A DNA stretch of 29,033 nucleotides, taken from the IMG/VR virus record IMGVR_UViG_2896607866_000010. One strand, given 5' to 3'. Below are positions 9,654-25,993 of this stretch, in pieces. Position 1 is the stretch's first letter, and every line of letters begins with the position of its first letter. The translations under genes and the position numbers were made by a program. The notes under the pieces were generated by a model. That model had not been told where the DNA came from. It was given only the letters and a program-made list of their open reading frames with translations, and did not search any database. The DNA comes from a virus (Duplodnaviria; Heunggongvirae; Uroviricota; Caudoviricetes).

Positions 9654-10559
9654 CTATATTTCCAGACATCTGTTATCACTTAACCCATTACAAGCCCGCT
9701 GCCGCAGATATTCCCGTGGCGAGCGATAACCCAGCGCACTATGCGGATGCCATTCGTTATAATGCTCGAACGCCTCTGCAAGGTTCTTTGCTGCCGTTAA
9801 CCCGTCTGGTTTGGGCATGATACTGATGTAGTCACGCTTTATCGTTTTCACGAAGCTCTCTGCTATTCCGTTACTCTCCGGACTCCGCACCGCCGTGTTC
9901 TTCGGTTCAAGTCCCAACATCCGGGCGAACTGGCGTGTTTCATTAGCCCGGTAGCATGAACCATTATCCGTCAGCCACTCCACTGGAGACGACGGAAGAT
10001 CGTTGCCGAAGCGGCGTTCCACCGCTCCCAGCATGACGTCCTGTACTGTTTCACTGTTGAAGCCGCCGGTAGTCACCGCCCAGTGCAGTGCCTCACGATC
10101 ACAGCAGTCCAGCGCGAACGTGACACGCAGTCTCTCTCCGTTATCACAGCAGAACTCGAACCCGTCAGAGCACCATCGCTGATTGCTTTCTTTCACGGCT
10201 ACTCTGCCTGTATGTGCCCGTTTCGATGGCGGTACAGCAGGTTTTCGCTCAAGCAACAGCGCATTCTGGCGCATGATCCGGTAAACACGTTTGGCATTGA
10301 TCGCAGGCATACCATCAAGTTCTGCCTGTCTGCGAAGCAGCGCCCATACCCGACGATAACCATACGTGGGCAGCTCTCCGATAACATGGTGTATACGGAG
10401 AAGCACATCCGTATCATCAGTGTGACGACTGCGGCGGCCATCCATCCAGTCATCGGTTCGTCTGAGAATGACGTGCAACTGCGCACGCGACACCCGGAGA
10501 CAACGGCTGACTAAGCTTACTCCCCATCCCCGGGCAATAAGGGCGCGTGCGCTATCCAC
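9654..10559 (-). CDS. insD: IS2 transposase OrfB (InsD)
   Basis: 301-aa ORF with IS3-family DDE motifs; A6G slippery site at 10559-10565 on the minus strand. Confidence 0.9.
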
Positions 10560-10882
10560 TTTTTTGCCCGTCCATATTCAACGGCTTCTTTGAGGAGTTC
10601 ATTTTCCATCGTTTTCTTGCCGAGCAGGCGCTGGAGTTCTTTAATCTGCTTCATGGCGGCAGCAAGTTCAGAGGCAGGAACAACCTGTTCTCCGGCGGCC
10701 ACAGCAGTAAGACTTCCTTCCTGGTATTGCTTACGCCAGAGAAATAACTGGCTGGCTGCTACACCATGTTGCCGGGCAACGAGGGAGACCGTCATCCCCG
10801 GTTCAAAGCTCTGCTGAACAATTGCGATCTTTTCCTGTGTGGTACGCCGTCTGCGTTTCTCCGGCCCTAAGACATCAATCAT
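10517..10882 (-). CDS. insC: IS2 transposase OrfA (InsC)
   Basis: 121-aa ORF starting [12 protein letters not shown] at ATG 10882. Confidence 0.85.
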
Positions 10883-10973
10883 CTGTTCTCCAATGACTAG
10901 TCTAAAAACTAGTATTAAGACTATCACTTAAATAAGTGATACTGGTTGTCTGGAGATTCAGGGGGCCAGTCTA

Positions 10974-12356: not shown

Positions 12357-12489
12357 GATTATGCTTCCTGTGATTTACTGTTATCGCTGCCTGTCACAAT
12401 AGGTTGCTTTAATTCTTTGAAGTGGCACACTGAATTTGGCCACCTGAACAGAGGTGATATGCTCACCTCAGAACAACACAGGTGCTCCA

Positions 12490-13658
<1,169 letters not shown>

Positions 13659-13805
13659 CCACTTCACTTCCTCATCACTCACTCCTGCGACGCTCCGTGG
13701 CAGGGCCCCCCACAGGAGTACCTTGTAAATGTAAGGTGTTTAAGCCTAAATTAAGTCGTATCACGGTTAAATAGCAAAGAAAAATTCACAGAAGGAAAGA
13801 CATTG

Positions 13806-14403: not shown

Positions 14404-14622
14404 CTACCCCCCAAGGCATTGGATCCTGATGTACTCCTGAAGCATTCTCAATGCTGTCTGGTCGCTGATGGGGCGCTTACCCAGAAGCAGACTTCCCAGC
14501 ACACCAATCGCAGCCCACTGTGATGGACTGACCTGATCCAACCACTGCAAAAACCAGTAGCCGGCACTGCCGGCGGAGGTGCCGTAGGCAATGCCTGTTG
14601 ATATTTTTTCCATCTGATACAT
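14404..14622 (-). CDS. class II holin of the 933W S-type, with a divergent C-terminus (possibly a remnant)
   Basis: N-terminal [10 protein letters not shown]...[25 protein letters not shown] matches the 933W-type holin as recalled; the C-terminal 20 or so residues do not; no endolysin or Rz genes follow. Confidence 0.5.
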
Positions 14623-15303: not shown

Positions 15304-15378
<75 letters not shown>

Positions 15379-15381
15379 ATA

Positions 15382-15456
<75 letters not shown>

Positions 15457-15458
15457 GC

Positions 15459-15535
15459 TGGCCCACCACCGAGGACTCGAACCTCGCACCGTCAACTTAG
15501 AAGGTTGATGCTCTATCCGGATGAGCTAGTGGTGG
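15459..15535 (-). tRNA. tRNA-Arg (anticodon UCU), phage argN/argU-like
   Basis: Cloverleaf with anticodon loop CUUCUAA, T-loop TTCGAGT, acceptor CCACCAC/GTGGTGG and encoded CCA; unusual C at position 1. Confidence 0.7.
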
Positions 15536-15536
15536 T

Positions 15537-15613
15537 TGGTGGCCCTTGCTGGACTTGAACCAGCGACCTGGCGATTATGAGTCGCTCGCTCTGACCAACT
15601 GAGCTAAAGGGCC
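15537..15613 (-). tRNA. tRNA with CAU anticodon, most similar to tRNA-Ile2 (ileX/ileZ-like); Met not excluded
   Basis: Cloverleaf with acceptor GGCCCTT/AAGGGCC, anticodon loop CUCAUAA, T-loop TTCAAGT and encoded CCA; resembles E. coli ileX as recalled. Confidence 0.75.
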
Positions 15614-17281: not shown

Positions 17282-17569
17282 TCAATCCTGCTCAAGATTG
17301 TAGATGAGTTTATTCTTCAGCAAAAGCAGAAAACCAGCCTTAAAACCAATCTCTTTCAAAACCCGTAATGATGTGACAAATTCGTCCTCACGCAAAATAA
17401 AACCGTCCGTCAGAAGTCCATTACAAAAATAAAATAACACAGCACCGCTCTTCCTTTGTTGAGATTGCAAACATCTAATGCGGCAATGGCTGACAATCGC
17501 TCCATTCTCAACGCGCACAGCATAGAGGCTATTTTCACTAAAAATTTCACGCAATTCTTCGATTTTCAT
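17282..17569 (-). CDS. hypothetical phage protein
   Basis: 95-aa ORF with SD GGAAGGA; stop adjacent to the next gene; no recognisable family. Confidence 0.35.
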   Translation of the reverse strand: MKIEELREIFSENSLYAVRVENGAIVSHCRIRCLQSQQRKSGAVLFYFCNGLLTDGFILREDEFVTSLRVLKEIGFKAGFLLLLKNKLIYNLEQD

Positions 17570-17698
17570 CTTCAGAATCCTTCCAGATAAATAGCTCTCC
17601 CCTGTTCGGGGTCCATCCCTCTTCTCCCTGCGCGCTACTTAAGTGAGTCGATTCTATCTGCGAAGGTGCGCGAATCAAATTCACCGGAAATAAACAAC

Positions 17699-17741
17699 AA
17701 AAAACCCGCCGAAACGCTGAGAGATCACAGCGATGGGCGGG
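17699..17741 (-). terminator. rho-independent terminator downstream of hok
   Basis: Minus-strand hairpin CCCGCC ... GGCGGG with an inner CGCTG/CAGCG stem, followed by six T residues. Confidence 0.5.
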
Positions 17742-17818
17742 TTAAGTGCGGGTGCGTTGAGGATGCCTGACACATCAGAGGTGGGCGGGGATGGGATCAG
17801 CTCCCCACCCGGTCACTC

Positions 17819-17974
17819 TTACTTCCTGGATTCGTAGTCTACGAAGACAGCGACCTCCGTCTGGCCGGTTCGGATTCGTACCTCACAGAGGTCTTTCCTC
17901 GTTACCAGTGCCGTCACTATGACGGTTAAACAGATGACGATCAGGGCGATTAACATCGCCTTTTGCTGCTTCAT
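17819..17974 (-). CDS. hok: Hok/Gef-family membrane toxin (type I toxin-antitoxin), HokD/RelF-like
   Basis: 51-aa product MKQQKAMLIALIVICLTVIVTALVTRKDLCEVRIRTGQTEVAVF... matching Hok/RelF as recalled; SD AAGGAG 9 nt upstream. Confidence 0.8.
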   Translation of the reverse strand: MKQQKAMLIALIVICLTVIVTALVTRKDLCEVRIRTGQTEVAVFVDYESRK

Positions 17975-18201
17975 AGCCTGCTTCTCCTTGCCTTTCGGCA
18001 TGTAAGAGGCTAACCTACATGTGCAAAGCATGAAATTGGCCTCAGATTAATGTTAAGCGTCTTGCCGGACGCGTAATGTTAACTGGGGCTTTTCTCTATC
18101 TGCCTTTTGGTGTTCATGCCTGAAGCAGATAGCCTCAAGCACCCGCAGTCATTCTACTTACCTCGCCAATATGAAATCAATCAGAAAGGTGCCCCATAAA
18201 A

Positions 18202-18888
18202 TCACTCCTTCTCTTCTTTACCGTAGTGGAGTTGACCAATTTTGATAAGAGGGCGTCCCTGAGATTTGCGGTGTAGATTGGTATCGCGCAGAGAATACAC
18301 ACAGCCACAATATTCCTGCTGATAGAATTTTTCGCGCTTGCTGATTTCAATCATACGGGACGAGCCGCCCTGCTTGCGCCAGTTATAATCCCAGTACACC
18401 ATGCCCGGATAATGCGCGACGGCTCGCCGCCCACAGTCGTTAACCTGCTGCATATTTTTCCAGCGTGAAATGCCCAGTGAACTGCTGATCACACTGAAAC
18501 CATTTTCAGCGGCGTACAGCGCTGTCCGCTCAAAACGCATGTCAAAACACATGGTGCAACGGATCCCTCGTTCGGGCTCCCATTCCATTCCTTTGGCTCG
18601 TTCAAACCAGTTGTCTGTGTCGTAATCAGCATCAATAAACGGCACGCCGTGTTGTTCAGCAAAGCGAATATTCTCATCCTTACGAATTAAATACTCTTTC
18701 TGAGGATGAATGTTCGGGTTGTAGAAAAAGATGGTGTAGTCGATTCCCGAGGCCTGAAGCGCCTCCATCACCTCACCGGAACATGGAGCACAGCAAGAGT
18801 GCAGTAGTAGTTTGTTTGCCCCGTTTGGGAGCTCCAATTTGGGCCGTTTGAAATCAGCAACTGTCATAAATATGTTTATTGGGGTCAT
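18202..18888 (-). CDS. QueH-like protein (DUF208, epoxyqueuosine reductase family), tentative
   Basis: 228-aa ORF with the characteristic Cys motifs: HSCCAPC near the N-terminus, RCTMC in the middle and YCGCVYS near the C-terminus. No obvious SD; alternative ATG at 18867. Confidence 0.55.
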
Positions 18889-19035
18889 AAAAATATCAAA
18901 GAGTGTAGCATTAGAACGGGGCTATCGGAAACAGATGTGTGACTGCTCCCCGCCCTTTCGGGCGGTCTCCTGATGATTTGAGGGTGCAGAAATCCCTCCG
19001 GTTAAGGATTAAATTTTTAACAGTGCTAAATTTAA

Positions 19036-19449
19036 TTATTCAGTTCTGGATTTTGTCGCCCTGCGTATCCGCGCTTTCGCGTTACGCTCAATCTGTATCA
19101 GCTTTTCTATATTTCTCCGCCTTTCCTGTTCCTCCTGGCGCAATAGCCTTACATCATCTGCCAGTCTGGTTTCTCTTTTTGCCACAGAGAGCATCCAGTC
19201 AAACGGCTCCACAACCGCACCGCAGATTTTACAGCGGACCTGACGCTCTTTTTCGTCAACCCGTACAGAGGCGTGATGGCAATATGGTCTTTCCGATGGC
19301 TCATAAAGAAAATTAACCTGATTACGAGGGTCATCCTCTTTTATCGGAAATAAAACGATATTGCTTAACTCATCTTCTGGTTTTATTTCCATGCTCCTCT
19401 CCTTTGATGCGAATGCCAGCGGTAATTGAAGCCTGATAGCTAATTTCAT
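19036..19449 (-). CDS. hypothetical protein with a putative zinc-ribbon (C-x-HH ... C-x2-C) and a basic coiled-coil C-terminus
   Basis: 137-aa ORF with SD AGGAGG; start abuts the upstream stop (TGAATG), suggesting one operon. Confidence 0.4.
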   Translation of the reverse strand: MKLAIRLQLPLAFASKERSMEIKPEDELSNIVLFPIKEDDPRNQVNFLYEPSERPYCHHASVRVDEKERQVRCKICGAVVEPFDWMLSVAKRETRLADDVRLLRQEEQERRRNIEKLIQIERNAKARIRRATKSRTE

Positions 19450-19872
19450 TCACAGTATCGCCTCCTGAAAATTACCCTGATAGAAAGCCAGTACACGCTG
19501 CATAGCTTCGCTCTTCCGGCACTCGCGACAGATTATATTCAGGCGCCTGTCGTAGCGGCGTATTTCTCCGTCAGGTAATGACCAGATAAGGTCCGGATCA
19601 ACAACAACCGGTTTCCTCACCTTTACTCTCGAGAGTTTTTTGCGGGCGCTTTGCCAGTCCTTGCGAGCCTGTTCAGACGGGAATAAGCCGTAGCCAGAAT
19701 TATATACATCACCACTTGCGACCAGTTCTATGCATAAGCGACCGACAGACGCACGACTGATACCTGTTTCATCGGACAACTGCCGAATCGTGACCCGACC
19801 GTCCTGATGCACGAGTTCCACAATTCGCGTCTTCAGTTCTTCCCGCTGTTCGGGAGTAAAAGGTTTCGCCAT
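19450..19872 (-). CDS. hypothetical winged-helix/HTH protein (possibly YdaW/DUF977-like)
   Basis: 140-aa ORF with strong SD CAGGAGG; N-terminal segment VTIRQLSDETGISRASVGRL has an HTH pattern; located directly after the DnaC-like gene. Confidence 0.45.
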   Translation of the reverse strand: MAKPFTPEQREELKTRIVELVHQDGRVTIRQLSDETGISRASVGRLCIELVASGDVYNSGYGLFPSEQARKDWQSARKKLSRVKVRKPVVVDPDLIWSLPDGEIRRYDRRLNIICRECRKSEAMQRVLAFYQGNFQEAIL

Positions 19873-19886
19873 AAATCCTCCTGAAA

Positions 19887-20633
19887 CTACTTAACAACCC
19901 TCGAATGGCTAACATTCGGACGCCAGCTCTCCCAGTTAAAATTCACCCAGCGCCCGCCGTTCATGACCATGCGATCCATCACCCGCTCGCCGAGCAATGT
20001 TTTCATCACCTCATAGTTCAGGTTTGTCAGCATCCCCACGCTGCGCATCGACGCTGTCCGGCGATCAACAATCTGGTGCAGCACCACCTGCTCGTTTTTC
20101 GTCTCGCGCTGAATGCCAATTTCATCAAGAACCAGCAGATCCACTTCGCACAGCTCCCGCAAAAATTTTTCGCCTGACTGCCCGTCGTCATAGCTGGCGT
20201 GCAGGGCGCTCATAACATCAGCCACGGTAACCACAATCACTGTCTGACCGTCTTTCAGCAGGCGATTCCCGATAGCTGCCGCTAAGTGATTCTTCCCGGT
20301 ACCAGGTTTTCCGCTGAACGCAAAATTTGTACACCCGGTCATCAGTTCATCGGCGATGGATTTCGCCTGGCTTAACGCGTATCGCTGGCCGTCGTTCTGC
20401 ACCTGGTAATTCGCAAACGAGCATTTACGGTGCAACGGCTGGATGCCTGAGCGATTCAGAATTTTTTCCACCCGCAACTGGCGATTCAGGCGGTTGATCT
20501 CCTCGCTACGTTTCTGGCCTTCAGCAAGTTGCCACTCGCGCCACTCCGCTACCGTTCTGAATGGGGCGGTTACATGTGGCGGGGTCAGTCGGCGGATGCG
20601 TTCCAAAACGCCGCCTGTCGCAATATTTTTCAT
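19887..20633 (-). CDS. DnaC-like replication protein / helicase loader (Rac YdaV-like AAA+ ATPase)
   Basis: 248-aa ORF with Walker A (GKPGTGKNHLAAA) and Walker B (LLVLDEIG) motifs. Confidence 0.75.
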   Translation of the reverse strand: MKNIATGGVLERIRRLTPPHVTAPFRTVAEWREWQLAEGQKRSEEINRLNRQLRVEKILNRSGIQPLHRKCSFANYQVQNDGQRYALSQAKSIADELMTGCTNFAFSGKPGTGKNHLAAAIGNRLLKDGQTVIVVTVADVMSALHASYDDGQSGEKFLRELCEVDLLVLDEIGIQRETKNEQVVLHQIVDRRTASMRSVGMLTNLNYEVMKTLLGERVMDRMVMNGGRWVNFNWESWRPNVSHSRVVK

Positions 20634-20639
20634 GGTCCG

Positions 20640-20960
20640 TTACCCCCTGAAGCCTGGCGGGATCGCACTGTCCGGCAACGAGACGGTGTTAACCTGTCGG
20701 AGCAACGTCTCAGGCCGAACACCTTTCGGCGCGAACAGGCCCTGGTATTCATTGGCGATGCTGTGTCGAATCACCTGCTCAGGTGTAAAACCCTGCTGAC
20801 GGAATTTTTCCAGTTCCCGTATCGCCCCGTTAGCGCCCTGCTCCGTTCGAATCGGTTTTCGCAATGCCTGTCTGAACCGGACCCACTCATGCCAGAGTGT
20901 TTCCGGCAACCAATCGGGCAGCTCAATAGCCTCCGGCTCGAATTTTTTAGACGCTCGTTT
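20640..20960 (-). pseudogene. YdaU-like replication protein, C-terminal fragment (gene split by IS911 copy 2)
   Basis: Open frame from the IS911 left junction to the TAA at 20640; in frame with the N-terminal fragment when the IS plus 3 bp are removed. Confidence 0.55.
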
Positions 20961-21032
20961 TGAAGTGGCACACTGAATTTGGCCACCTGAACAGAGGTGA
21001 TATGCTCACCTCAGAACAACACAGGTGCTCCA

Positions 21033-22201
<1,169 letters not shown>

Positions 22202-22287
22202 CCACTTCATTTTTGGCGAGGGGGATTTAGGGGGAGATCAGTATTTAGATCTTCCTCTTCCTCTGGTAACGCTTTTTGATCCGTTTG

Positions 22288-22308
22288 TGTAACGCTGGCA
22301 GCGTTACC
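22288..22308. repeat. 21-bp palindrome TGTAACGC-N5-GCGTTAC(C), copy 1
   Basis: Seen directly: gTGTAACGCTGGCAGCGTTACc, inside the ydaU-like N-terminal coding region. Confidence 0.8.
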
Positions 22309-22494
22309 TTTTCGTTTCAGTTCGCGTATTTTTGTTACTCGCTCGTTTGTAACCGCCCGTTTTTTAGAGCTTTTTCCGTTATGACGTTCAAAGTTAGGTA
22401 GAGAAAGCCCACCGTCATTTTCGACCAGCCATCCAACCTGAATTAACGCATCAGCAAAACCAGACATAAAAGTGATGCGATCTATTGCACTTTT

Positions 22495-22515
22495 TGTAAC
22501 GCCGCGAGCGTTACA
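22495..22515. repeat. 21-bp palindrome TGTAACGC-N5-GCGTTACA, copy 2
   Basis: Seen directly: TGTAACGCCGCGAGCGTTACA, inside the ydaU-like coding region. Confidence 0.8.
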
Positions 22516-22686
22516 ATCTGCATTACCGTCTATCATTTGTTGATCCGCCCATGCCCAGAAGCGAATAACCTTCCCTAATGCGGCATCTGGATCAATATTC
22601 AGAATCTCAGCAAGCCTGAATATTTCCGGCTTATCCGGCGTAATAACCTCGAGCTTTATCCAGTTTGAAGCCATTTGTTTTCACCT

Positions 22687-24662: not shown

Positions 24663-24673
24663 TGGATTTGCCC

Positions 24674-25579
24674 CTATATTTCCAGACATCTGTTATCACT
24701 TAACCCATTACAAGCCCGCTGCCGCAGATATTCCCGTGGCGAGCGATAACCCAGCGCACTATGCGGATGCCATTCGTTATAATACTCGAACGCCTCTGCA
24801 AGGTTCTTTGCTGCCGTTAACCCGTCTGGTTTGGGCATGATACTGATGTAGTCACGCTTTATCGTTTTCACGAAGCTCTCTGCTATTCCGTTACTCTCCG
24901 GACTCCGCACCGCCGTGTTCTTCGGTTCAAGTCCCAACATCCGGGCGAACTGGCGTGTTTCATTAGCCCGGTAGCATGAACCATTATCCGTCAGCCACTC
25001 CACTGGAGACGACGGAAGATCGTTGCCGAAGCGGCGTTCCACCGCTCCCAGCATGACGTCCTGTACTGTTTCACTGTTGAAGCCGCCGGTAGTCACCGCC
25101 CAGTGCAGTGCCTCACGATCACAGCAGTCCAGCGCGAACGTGACACGCAGTCTCTCTCCGTTATCACAGCAGAACTCGAACCCGTCAGAGCACCATCGCT
25201 GATTGCTTTCTTTCACGGCCACTCTGCCTGTATGTGCCCGTTTCGATGGCGGTACAGCAGGTTTTCGCTCAAGCAACAGCGCATTCTGGCGCATGATCCG
25301 GTAAACACGTTTGGCATTGATCGCAGGCATACCATCAAGTTCTGCCTGTCTGCGAAGCAGCGCCCATACCCGACGATAACCATACGTGGGCAGCTCTCCG
25401 ATAACATGGTGTATACGGAGAAGCACATCCGTATCATCAGTGTGACGACTGCGGCGGCCATCCATCCAGTCATCGGTTCGTCTGAGAATGACGTGCAACT
25501 GCGCACGCGACACCCGGAGACAACGGCTGACTAAGCTTACTCCCCATCCCCGGGCAATAAGGGCGCGTGCGCTATCCAC
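24674..25579 (-). CDS. insD: IS2 transposase OrfB (InsD), copy 2
   Basis: 301-aa ORF, one amino-acid difference from copy 1 (H to Y near the C-terminus). Confidence 0.9.
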
Positions 25580-25902
25580 TTTTTTGCCCGTCCATATTCA
25601 ACGGCTTCTTTGAGGAGTTCATTTTCCATCGTTTTCTTGCCGAGCAGGCGCTGGAGTTCTTTAATCTGCTTCATGGCGGCAGCAAGTTCAGAGGCAGGAA
25701 CAACCTGTTCTCCGGCGGCCACAGCAGTAAGACTTCCTTCCTGGTATTGCTTACGCCAGAGAAATAACTGGCTGGCTGCTACACCATGTTGCCGGGCAAC
25801 GAGGGAGACCGTCATCCCCGGTTCAAAGCTCTGCTGAACAATTGCGATCTTTTCCTGTGTGGTACGCCGTCTGCGTTTCTCCGGCCCTAAGACATCAATC
25901 AT
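25537..25902 (-). CDS. insC: IS2 transposase OrfA (InsC), copy 2
   Basis: Identical product to the copy 1 InsC. Confidence 0.85.
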
Positions 25903-25993
25903 CTGTTCTCCAATGACTAGTCTAAAAACTAGTATTAAGACTATCACTTAAATAAGTGATACTGGTTGTCTGGAGATTCAGAGGGCCAGTCTA

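Follow-up and report, generated by a model that had tools for sequence, protein, structure and literature searches.

A Ren-Like Gene, a Mobile Predicted Zinc-Ribbon Gene and a QueH Gene Side by Side in a Rac-Like Prophage: A Probable Case of Lambdoid Mosaicism

Gene Content of the Locus

The stretch of DNA analysed here (the window) is 29,033 nucleotides (nt) long and is held in IMG/VR as the Caudoviricetes record IMGVR_UViG_2896607866_000010. DNA comparison identified it as a Rac-like lambdoid prophage with 99.4–99.9% identity to the prophage of Escherichia coli FDAARGOS_944. Two small open reading frames (ORFs), ORF-A and ORF-B, lie co-directionally on the minus strand within positions 19036–19872, in the early rightward operon. 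The gene order is repressor, cro-like, ydaT, ydaU-like initiator, ydaV-like helicase loader, ORF-A, ORF-B, QueH, hok-sok, DUF1367, DUF1364, DUF1133 (Q-like), tRNAs, and lysis. An earlier, sequence-only reading took the two ORFs for an uncharacterised cassette of a helix-turn-helix (HTH) protein and a zinc-ribbon/coiled-coil protein, which might form an operon for regulation, exclusion or anti-defence together with the QueH-like gene. Its observations were confirmed in part, and its interpretation is partly supported. The placement between the replication genes and the QueH-like gene is correct, with the loader gene upstream, QueH downstream, and all of them on the minus strand. Both ORFs are real genes, far from chance ORFs, because ORF-A matches Pfam DUF977 with 116.5 bits and ORF-B combines a match to PHROG 1621 with a ratio of nonsynonymous to synonymous polymorphism (pN/pS) of 0.05–0.07. 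The reading preferred here, with a probability of about 0.7, places the region in the delayed-early rightward operon of a lambdoid prophage of the Rac type inactivated by insertion sequences (IS). In this reading, recombination joined three independent modules: a Ren-like gene, a mobile ORF-B cassette, and a QueH metabolic moron. The coordinates of all features are listed in Table 1.

ORF-A, a DUF977/Ren-Like Gene

The length of 140 amino acids (aa) read earlier for ORF-A was retained. Its ATG is preceded at 4 nt by AGGAGG, and the stop codon of the loader gene lies 14 nt upstream. The match to DUF977 (PF06163; cut-off of 22.1 bits) covered model positions 1–134 of 134. Residues 1–139 matched PHROG 142, annotated as "Ren-like exclusion protein", with an E-value of 2.7e-44 over profile positions 1–115 of 116. 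Ren of phage lambda matched the same PHROG over nearly its full length (E 1.6e-41), and in a BLASTP comparison residues 112–131 of ORF-A aligned with residues 73–92 of lambda Ren at 60% identity (E 3e-7). The earlier statement that neither protein could be assigned to a characterised family therefore stands for ORF-B and falls for ORF-A, which belongs to Pfam DUF977 and shares PHROG 142 with lambda Ren.

Additional HTH matches of ORF-A were obtained to HTH_24 (26.0 bits, cut-off 21.9) and HTH_IclR (23.1 bits, cut-off 22). The AlphaFold2 (AF2) model has a winged helix in residues 1–82 with a predicted local distance difference test (pLDDT) score of about 90 and a poorly defined C-terminal half; the protein can be divided into the N-terminal winged helix, a helix at residues 67–82, and the conserved C-terminal Ren motif NIICRECRKSEAMQRVLAFY. 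A Foldseek search with this model returned generic winged-HTH (wHTH) folds of the GntR, IclR, and MarR types with a probability of about 1. The N-terminus is modelled as a wHTH fold of predicted DNA-binding type. PADLOC gave weak, HTH-level matches (E 0.002 or worse); its library is composed of defence proteins, not anti-defence proteins.

ORF-A shows 99% identity to a cluster from Shigella sonnei/E. coli and 75–83% identity to the common alleles of E. coli. All counts of DUF977, ORF-B, QueH, and their junctions were made in 5,426 complete E. coli genomes. In this set, the recognition-helix allele of the window is uncommon: at least 80% of the gene was covered in only 87. The 3,617 genomes that match some part of the window ORF-A most likely do so through its conserved 3' part. 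At least five allele classes of DUF977 can be distinguished by the predicted recognition helix (residues 28–50, positions 19723–19791), and residues 52–135 are nearly invariant. Co-variation of the recognition-helix allele with the type of replication module was tested, and no simple tracking was found.

The slot directly after the loader gene is common to lambda, E. coli 042, CFT073, phage 640R1, and every resolved IMG/VR locus, and the most fitting reading of ORF-A is that of a Ren-type gene standing third in the replication module. The exclusion idea of the earlier reading fits ORF-A alone, as an ordinary lambdoid function named long ago; it does not extend to a cassette or an operon.

YdaW of K-12 was considered as a DUF977 protein and rejected: it is a truncated DUF1627 protein unrelated to ORF-A. 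A preprint names YdaW as a blocker of RcaT, the toxin of retron-Sen2; since YdaW is a truncated DUF1627 and not a DUF977 protein, that result does not apply to ORF-A, although it may merit follow-up for the DUF1627 family. DUF1627 is a double winged-helix protein, and its full-length gene lies between ydaV and DUF977 in many prophages.

ORF-B, a Self-Contained Cassette

A length of 137 aa for ORF-B, counted from the first ATG of the open frame (19449), was rejected in favour of 118 aa from the ATG at 19392. The codon at 19449 is ATG only in the window lineage and is GTG or GTA (not a start) in the other DUF977–ORF-B loci. The sequence AAAGGAGAGGAGC-ATG at 19392 is kept behind at least six unrelated upstream contexts, the homologues of Klebsiella, Serratia, Yersinia, Erwinia, and others have their first Met at the position equivalent to ATG 19392, and the RefSeq annotation is 118 aa. 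Because ORF-B starts at 19392, the two ORFs are 57 nt apart and do not abut. The strong Shine–Dalgarno (SD) sequences ascribed to them are present, AGGAGG for ORF-A and a conserved SD of its own for ORF-B.

The upstream border of the cassette was determined by comparison of the 80 closest IMG/VR loci, which were picked for near-identity to the window ORF-B. The sequence GCTGGCATTCGCATCAAAGGAGAGGAGC is kept in at least six contexts, and the sequence further upstream is different in all of them. The common homology starts about 28 nt before the ATG, at GCTGGCATTCGCATC, which puts the cassette edge at about 19420. These 28 nt or so match the 3' end of the ead/Ea22-like genes that overlap the ORF-B start in many phages. 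On the downstream side, homology to CFT073 and phage 640R1 stops just past the hairpin at 18950–18965, and homology to the DUF977–QueH spacer of E. coli 042 starts a few bases beyond it. Mosaic breakpoints are thus located on both sides of ORF-B. The self-contained cassette measures about 470 bp, brings its own SD, and closes with a GC hairpin; ORF-B behaves as a delayed-early gene that moves independently.

In many E. coli prophages, the ead/Ea22-like protein whose gene overlaps the ORF-B start ends with ..AGIRIKGEE, and some database proteins are Ead/Ea22–ORF-B fusions. Two copies of ORF-B a few hundred bases apart were observed in a few loci.

The contexts of ORF-B in other genomes are diverse. 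In Stx2a phages, it follows ead/Ea22 in the early-left region, and in a Klebsiella phage it lies between NinG and YlcG/Q. In Klebsiella, Serratia, Yersinia, and Erwinia prophages, it is the last nin gene before Q and overlaps YbcO, RusA, or NinH by 4 nt, and in Morganella and Hafnia phages it stands beside resolvase or NinB-like genes. For the more distant relatives, a broad alignment had no conserved stretch usable for finding loci. A narrower one led to four viral and three genomic loci, all on high-GC metagenomic contigs with messy ORFs; these seven loci are prophage-like (integrase, excisionase, wHTH, and terminase), with no informative conserved neighbour of the ORF-B relative.

ORF-B Protein and Its Family

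Residues 1–117 of ORF-B matched PHROG 1621 (function unknown) with an E-value of 6.4e-56. Nothing above threshold was found for it in Pfam, NCBIfam, PADLOC, or PDB sequences, and a profile search of lambda and of the K-12 Rac prophage gave no counterpart. Close relatives are confined to Enterobacterales prophages. A wide profile search of 1.8 billion cluster representatives yielded 1,621 proteins at E ≤ 1e-3, of which 257 reached E ≤ 1e-10; most are 100–190 aa long, and their composition is very varied. The superfamily comprises about 1,600 clusters at 50% identity. PHROG 1621, together with the related PHROGs 8538 and 4865, was matched by all 44 distant relatives tested.

The shared core consists of a CxH...CxxC ribbon (C38, H40, C54, and C57), a DPFD turn, and a long helix ending with L-x2-ERNAKARIR. 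The four putative zinc ligands are invariant or nearly so, and the ERNAKARIR motif is nearly invariant. The N-terminus carries the acidic motif ELSNIVLFP, the widespread form of which is (N/E)-V-V-x-F-P. The AF2 model shows a small ribbon and a 55-residue helix (residues 63–117) with pLDDT above 90 and a basic ERNAKARIRR end; the net charge is −5 in the N-terminal third and +5 in the last 18 residues. Among 41 E. coli/Shigella alleles, the pN/pS was lowest in the ribbon, and ORF-B was shown to be under strong purifying selection.

The nearest approach to a known domain is the TFIIB-type ribbon. Zn_Ribbon_TF (PF08271) scored 21.1–21.5 bits on ORF-B, with a cut-off of 29, and was also matched by 5 of the 44 relatives; the best Foldseek match was the N-terminal ribbon of TFIIB (1PFT) with a probability of 0.66 and a sub-threshold E-value of 0.4. 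Fold searches against PDB and viral structures returned nothing significant, and profile searches against PDB sequences gave coiled-coil noise only.

QueH and Transcription of the Region

The gene downstream of ORF-B scored 220.6 bits against PF02677 (E 2e-65, cut-off 23.5), and its residues 20–196 aligned with Thermotoga maritima QueH (PDB 7LC5; E 5e-22), including the CCAP and YCGCV motifs. As judged by these matches, it is a genuine member of the QueH family. The earlier observation that this gene has no SD was confirmed at both candidate start codons, ATG 18888 and ATG 18867. The two in-frame ATGs, 21 nt apart, are conserved, and the AT-rich leader (18889–19035) is common to the window and E. 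coli 042. In E. coli, queuosine is made with QueG, and it sits in the tRNAs with GUN anticodons (Asp, Asn, His, and Tyr). The prophage QueH has no obvious link to the prophage tRNAs because none of the four has a GUN anticodon.

The gap between ORF-B and QueH is 147–168 nt. Neither a sigma-70-like promoter nor an intrinsic terminator was predicted on the minus strand from the loader gene to QueH. The hairpin at 18950–18965 has no U tract on either strand and does not score as an intrinsic terminator. A search of Rfam over 17400–20000 detected only sok, with no riboswitch or known RNA upstream of QueH. Since the genes are co-directional and no promoter or terminator was predicted between the loader gene and QueH, passive co-transcription of ORF-A, ORF-B, and QueH from the early promoter is plausible; co-transcription does not imply a common function.

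Co-Occurrence of the Three Genes

DUF977 was present in 3,617 of the 5,426 genomes (5,014 places), ORF-B in 1,679 (2,135 places), and prophage QueH in 995. The DUF977–ORF-B junction occurred in 975 genomes and the DUF977–QueH junction in 947, so that QueH stands directly after DUF977 in 947 of its 995 genomes. The ORF-B–QueH junction was found in two genomes, FDAARGOS_943 and FDAARGOS_944, which carry the same prophage with 99.8–100% identity; over the whole 1.9 kb of the trio region, the identity is 99.8–99.9%. Recurrence of the trio in unrelated genomes was not observed in this set. In the IMG/VR comparison, 12 of the 80 closest loci have the trio, with an ORF-B 97–100% identical to that of the window and the same gene order.

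Neither the two-gene cassette nor the three-gene operon of the sequence-only reading holds as a conserved unit: the ORF-B–QueH junction is limited to 2 of 5,426 genomes, breakpoints flank ORF-B, and each gene is common without the others. Of the refuting outcome named in the earlier reading, about half was observed: one of the two proteins matches a named lambdoid early protein, and the trio has no independent co-occurrence elsewhere. The finding is one of ordinary lambdoid mosaicism, the apparent operon being a lineage-specific recombinant of two common arrangements. In the simplest history, the gene order of the window would stem from recombination between the DUF977–ORF-B and DUF977–QueH arrangements; QueH would be a separate metabolic moron that normally stands directly after DUF977, and the three genes would probably be carried on the same early transcript without forming a functional system.

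Weighing of Alternative Explanations

A dedicated operon or system of ORF-A, ORF-B, and QueH that serves regulation, exclusion or anti-defence is extremely unlikely and was largely refuted by the co-occurrence counts. The genes are indeed close and co-directional, no canonical terminator or promoter separates them, QueH has no SD, and the trio is intact in the 12 IMG/VR loci and the two E. coli genomes. However, the near-identity of ORF-B and the constant gene order in these copies point to one lineage and not to independent co-occurrence. Genes other than QueH stand behind ORF-B in nearly all of the 1,679 genomes that carry it, the mosaic breakpoints lie on both sides of it, the distance to QueH is too long for translational coupling, and PADLOC matched neither ORF-B nor QueH and found only HTH-level similarity for ORF-A. 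A functional pair of ORF-A and ORF-B, with QueH incidental, is quite unlikely; ORF-B would then assist the Ren-like protein as a cofactor or serve as its effector, or the two would act as a regulator and its effector or in a toxin–antitoxin-like manner. Such a pair would agree with the presence of the DUF977–ORF-B junction in 975 genomes and in phage vB_EcoS-640R1, with its occurrence behind different replication modules (the ydaV type and the CFT073 type), and with a small winged-helix ORF that precedes an ORF-B relative in one distant viral contig of actinobacterial type. About 40% of the ORF-B carriers, by genome counts (1,679 versus 975), nevertheless lack this junction, as do most of the 5,014 DUF977 copies. 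ORF-B follows ead/Ea22 genes in Stx2a phages and stands among nin genes in Klebsiella, Serratia, Yersinia, Erwinia, Morganella, and Hafnia, where it was never directly after DUF977 in the contexts examined, and the spacer keeps an ead/Ea22-like 3' end, which suggests a single capture event followed by spread. The unequal numbers of places (5,014 versus 2,135), the 975 junction genomes, and the other contexts of ORF-B do not fit a toxin–antitoxin or obligate two-gene module.

Two further explanations concern ORF-B by itself. A moron for counter-defence or superinfection exclusion, directed against host immunity or rival phages, is rather unlikely. It would suit a small, early protein with an acidic N-terminus and with a mobile cassette that occupies accessory hot-spots in the early regions of lambdoid phages, next to a Ren-like gene whose lambda homologue counters Rex. 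Against it, PADLOC had no match for ORF-B, a result limited by a library of defence and not anti-defence proteins. The putative zinc ligands are invariant, and ERNAKAR nearly so, in relatives that apparently range from Proteobacteria to Actinobacteria (as judged from sequence composition and two titles of metagenome-assembled genomes). Conservation this deep speaks for a universally conserved target more than for a fast-evolving immune protein, and the pN/pS of 0.05 gives no sign of an arms race. A role in transcription or antitermination with Q, in which a TFIIB-like ribbon would contact RNA polymerase and the arginine-rich tip RNA, is very unlikely. ORF-B lies right before Q, or before YlcG and Q, in four other genera, and both the Zn_Ribbon_TF match of 21 bits, shared by 5 of 44 relatives, and the Foldseek match to the TFIIB ribbon point in this direction. 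All of these scores are sub-threshold, though; in E. coli and Shigella, a long distance separates ORF-B from the Q-like gene, and adjacency to Q may merely mark the end of the nin region.

Several points weigh against the preferred reading of three independent modules joined by recombination. The DUF977–ORF-B junction is common, and because it occurs in more than half of the ORF-B carriers, a functional link between ORF-A and ORF-B retains some plausibility. Lambda Ren scores below the Pfam threshold for DUF977; the link between ORF-A and Ren therefore holds only at the level of the PHROG or superfamily. ORF-A has its own SD and a gap of 14 nt from the loader gene, unlike the overlapping P/ren junction of lambda; this translational overlap is probably a feature of lambda and not one of the whole Ren family. 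A Ren-type role of ORF-A is suggested by homology to lambda Ren. In ORF-B, the heptad signal in the helix is moderate, and binding of nucleic acid is suggested with low confidence, the search results being a weak likeness to the TFIIB ribbon and generic coiled coils.

For ORF-B, a mechanism can be outlined with low confidence. The protein would dimerise through its helix, and the ERNAKARIRR tip, perhaps with the ribbon, would bind either nucleic acid or a conserved DNA/RNA machine of the host; like its neighbours in the nin region, ORF-B would then serve the DNA metabolism of the phage or the control of early genes. In a bolder form, which is to be regarded as quite unlikely, ORF-B would represent a previously undescribed class of very widespread phage early proteins, apparently ranging from Proteobacteria to Actinobacteria, with a zinc ribbon on a coiled-coil stalk and an invariant basic ERNAKAR tip, that grip a universally conserved nucleic-acid machine or structure; where DUF977 and ORF-B adjoin, as is common, it might help the Ren-like protein shield replication from abortive infection.

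State of the Prophage and Neighbouring Features

The ydaU-like initiator gene is cut in two by a 1,251-bp IS and is whole in the FDAARGOS_944 prophage, which is otherwise 99.7% identical. The interruption of the initiator gene makes it almost certain that the prophage is defective, having been inactivated by IS elements. In total, four IS insertions distinguish the window from the FDAARGOS_944 prophage. Two are identical copies of an IS3-family element, the OrfA of which resembles that of IS911, and the other two are 1,331 bp long, which is the size of IS2. About 970 bp of the FDAARGOS_944 prophage are gone from the window at about 14470–14480, namely the segment from the 3' part of a lysis-protein gene through the rrrD lysozyme gene to the holin gene. 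This deletion is a further sign of prophage decay. The best protein matches are those of Shigella sonnei and S. flexneri, which, together with the IS load, may point to an origin in Shigella.

A type I toxin–antitoxin locus of the hok/sok type lies directly downstream of QueH. It is named hokD in relatives and is the usual right-hand neighbour of the variable region in many prophages. The tRNA cluster of the prophage contains Gly-TCC, Thr-TGT, Arg-TCT, and a CAT-anticodon tRNA, which is assigned to Met by ARAGORN and to Ile by RefSeq.

Table 1. Positions of the features of the locus and of the surrounding prophage in the window.
Feature	Position	Strand	Basis or remark
ORF-A, DUF977/Ren-like protein, 140 aa	19450–19872	−	Pfam, PHROG 142, BLASTP to lambda Ren, AF2
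Spacer from ORF-A to ORF-B, 57 nt	19393–19449	−	Holds the SD of ORF-B, AAAGGAGAGGAGC
ORF-B, 118 aa, PHROG 1621	19036–19392	−	Profile match, conserved start, AF2, alleles
GC hairpin CCGCCCGAAAGGGCGG, downstream edge of the ORF-B cassette	18950–18965	−	Homology breakpoint
Prophage QueH (epoxyqueuosine reductase family)	18202–18867 (RefSeq start; other ATG 18888)	−	PF02677, PDB 7LC5
ydaV/DnaC-like helicase-loader gene, second gene of the replication module	19887–20633	−	NCBIfam PRK12377, E 8e-154; PHROG 50 DnaC-like helicase loader; RefSeq ydaV
ydaU-like replication-initiator gene	20640–22674	−	PHROG 2509/6451/678 replication-initiation matches on both fragments
ydaU-like gene, N-terminal fragment	22207–22674	−	
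ydaU-like gene, C-terminal fragment	20640–20909	−	
IS3-family IS, two identical copies of 1,251 bp	20959–22209 and 12416–13666		The copy at 20959–22209 splits the ydaU-like gene
IS of 1,331 bp, two copies	9643–10973 and 24663–25993		
hok/sok-type locus	17819–18144	−	Rfam sok, E 2e-27 at 17969–18144
tRNA cluster	15304–15613	−	

Significance and Comparison with Known Systems

The result mainly tidies the annotation of the locus, which now has a Ren-type gene of the replication module, a second gene of 118 aa, and a recombinant gene order. The Ren/DUF977 family accompanies most lambdoid replication modules, and the combination of a hypervariable recognition helix with an invariant body may offer an experimental handle. 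The ORF-B family is large and well conserved and has neither a Pfam model nor a solved structure; a small study to characterise it would be reasonable.

Compared with QueH of T. maritima, the QueH of the window is prophage-borne, is extended by about 20 residues at the N-terminus, and is not preceded by an SD. The predicted two-knuckle ribbon of ORF-B is similar in size to the TFIIB-type ribbon (PF08271), a weak, sub-threshold resemblance; however, its first knuckle is CxH and not CxxC, and a long helix comes after the ribbon where TFIIB has cyclin folds. The nin-region genes of lambda (NinB/Orf, NinG/Rap, NinH, RusA, YbcO, and others) occupy the same niche and belong to the same expression class as ORF-B; those with an assigned function are nucleases or recombination mediators, whereas ORF-B carries no catalytic signature.

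In the literature on DUF977, prophage QueH, and Ren, only the discussion of Ren by Thomason et al. was found to be relevant (bioRxiv 10.1101/2021.04.19.439022). According to its supplement, O, P, and ren are co-translated in lambda. The passages of this preprint that deal with Ren state that a ren gene is present in all initiator/helicase-loader modules (citing Weigel & Seitz 2006), that ren mutants, for which O and P carry suppressors, grow poorly on Rex+ lysogens (citing Toothman & Herskowitz 1980), and that Ren interacts with RexA and RexB in two-hybrid assays. By analogy with lambda Ren, ORF-A would act with the phage replication proteins and may keep phage replication going in cells with a Rex-type abortive-infection system. 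The two proteins differ in length, ORF-A having 140 aa and lambda Ren 96 aa, with about 45 extra residues of ORF-A between the wHTH and the motif, and in their replication partners, which are ydaU/ydaV (DnaC-like) for ORF-A and O/P for lambda Ren. They have in common an N-terminal winged-helix region and the C-terminal motif N-x4-ECRxSxAMxRVLAxY, and the lambda order O-P-ren is that of the ydaU-like gene, the ydaV-like gene, and ORF-A, the third gene in both cases coming right after the helicase loader in the pR operon.

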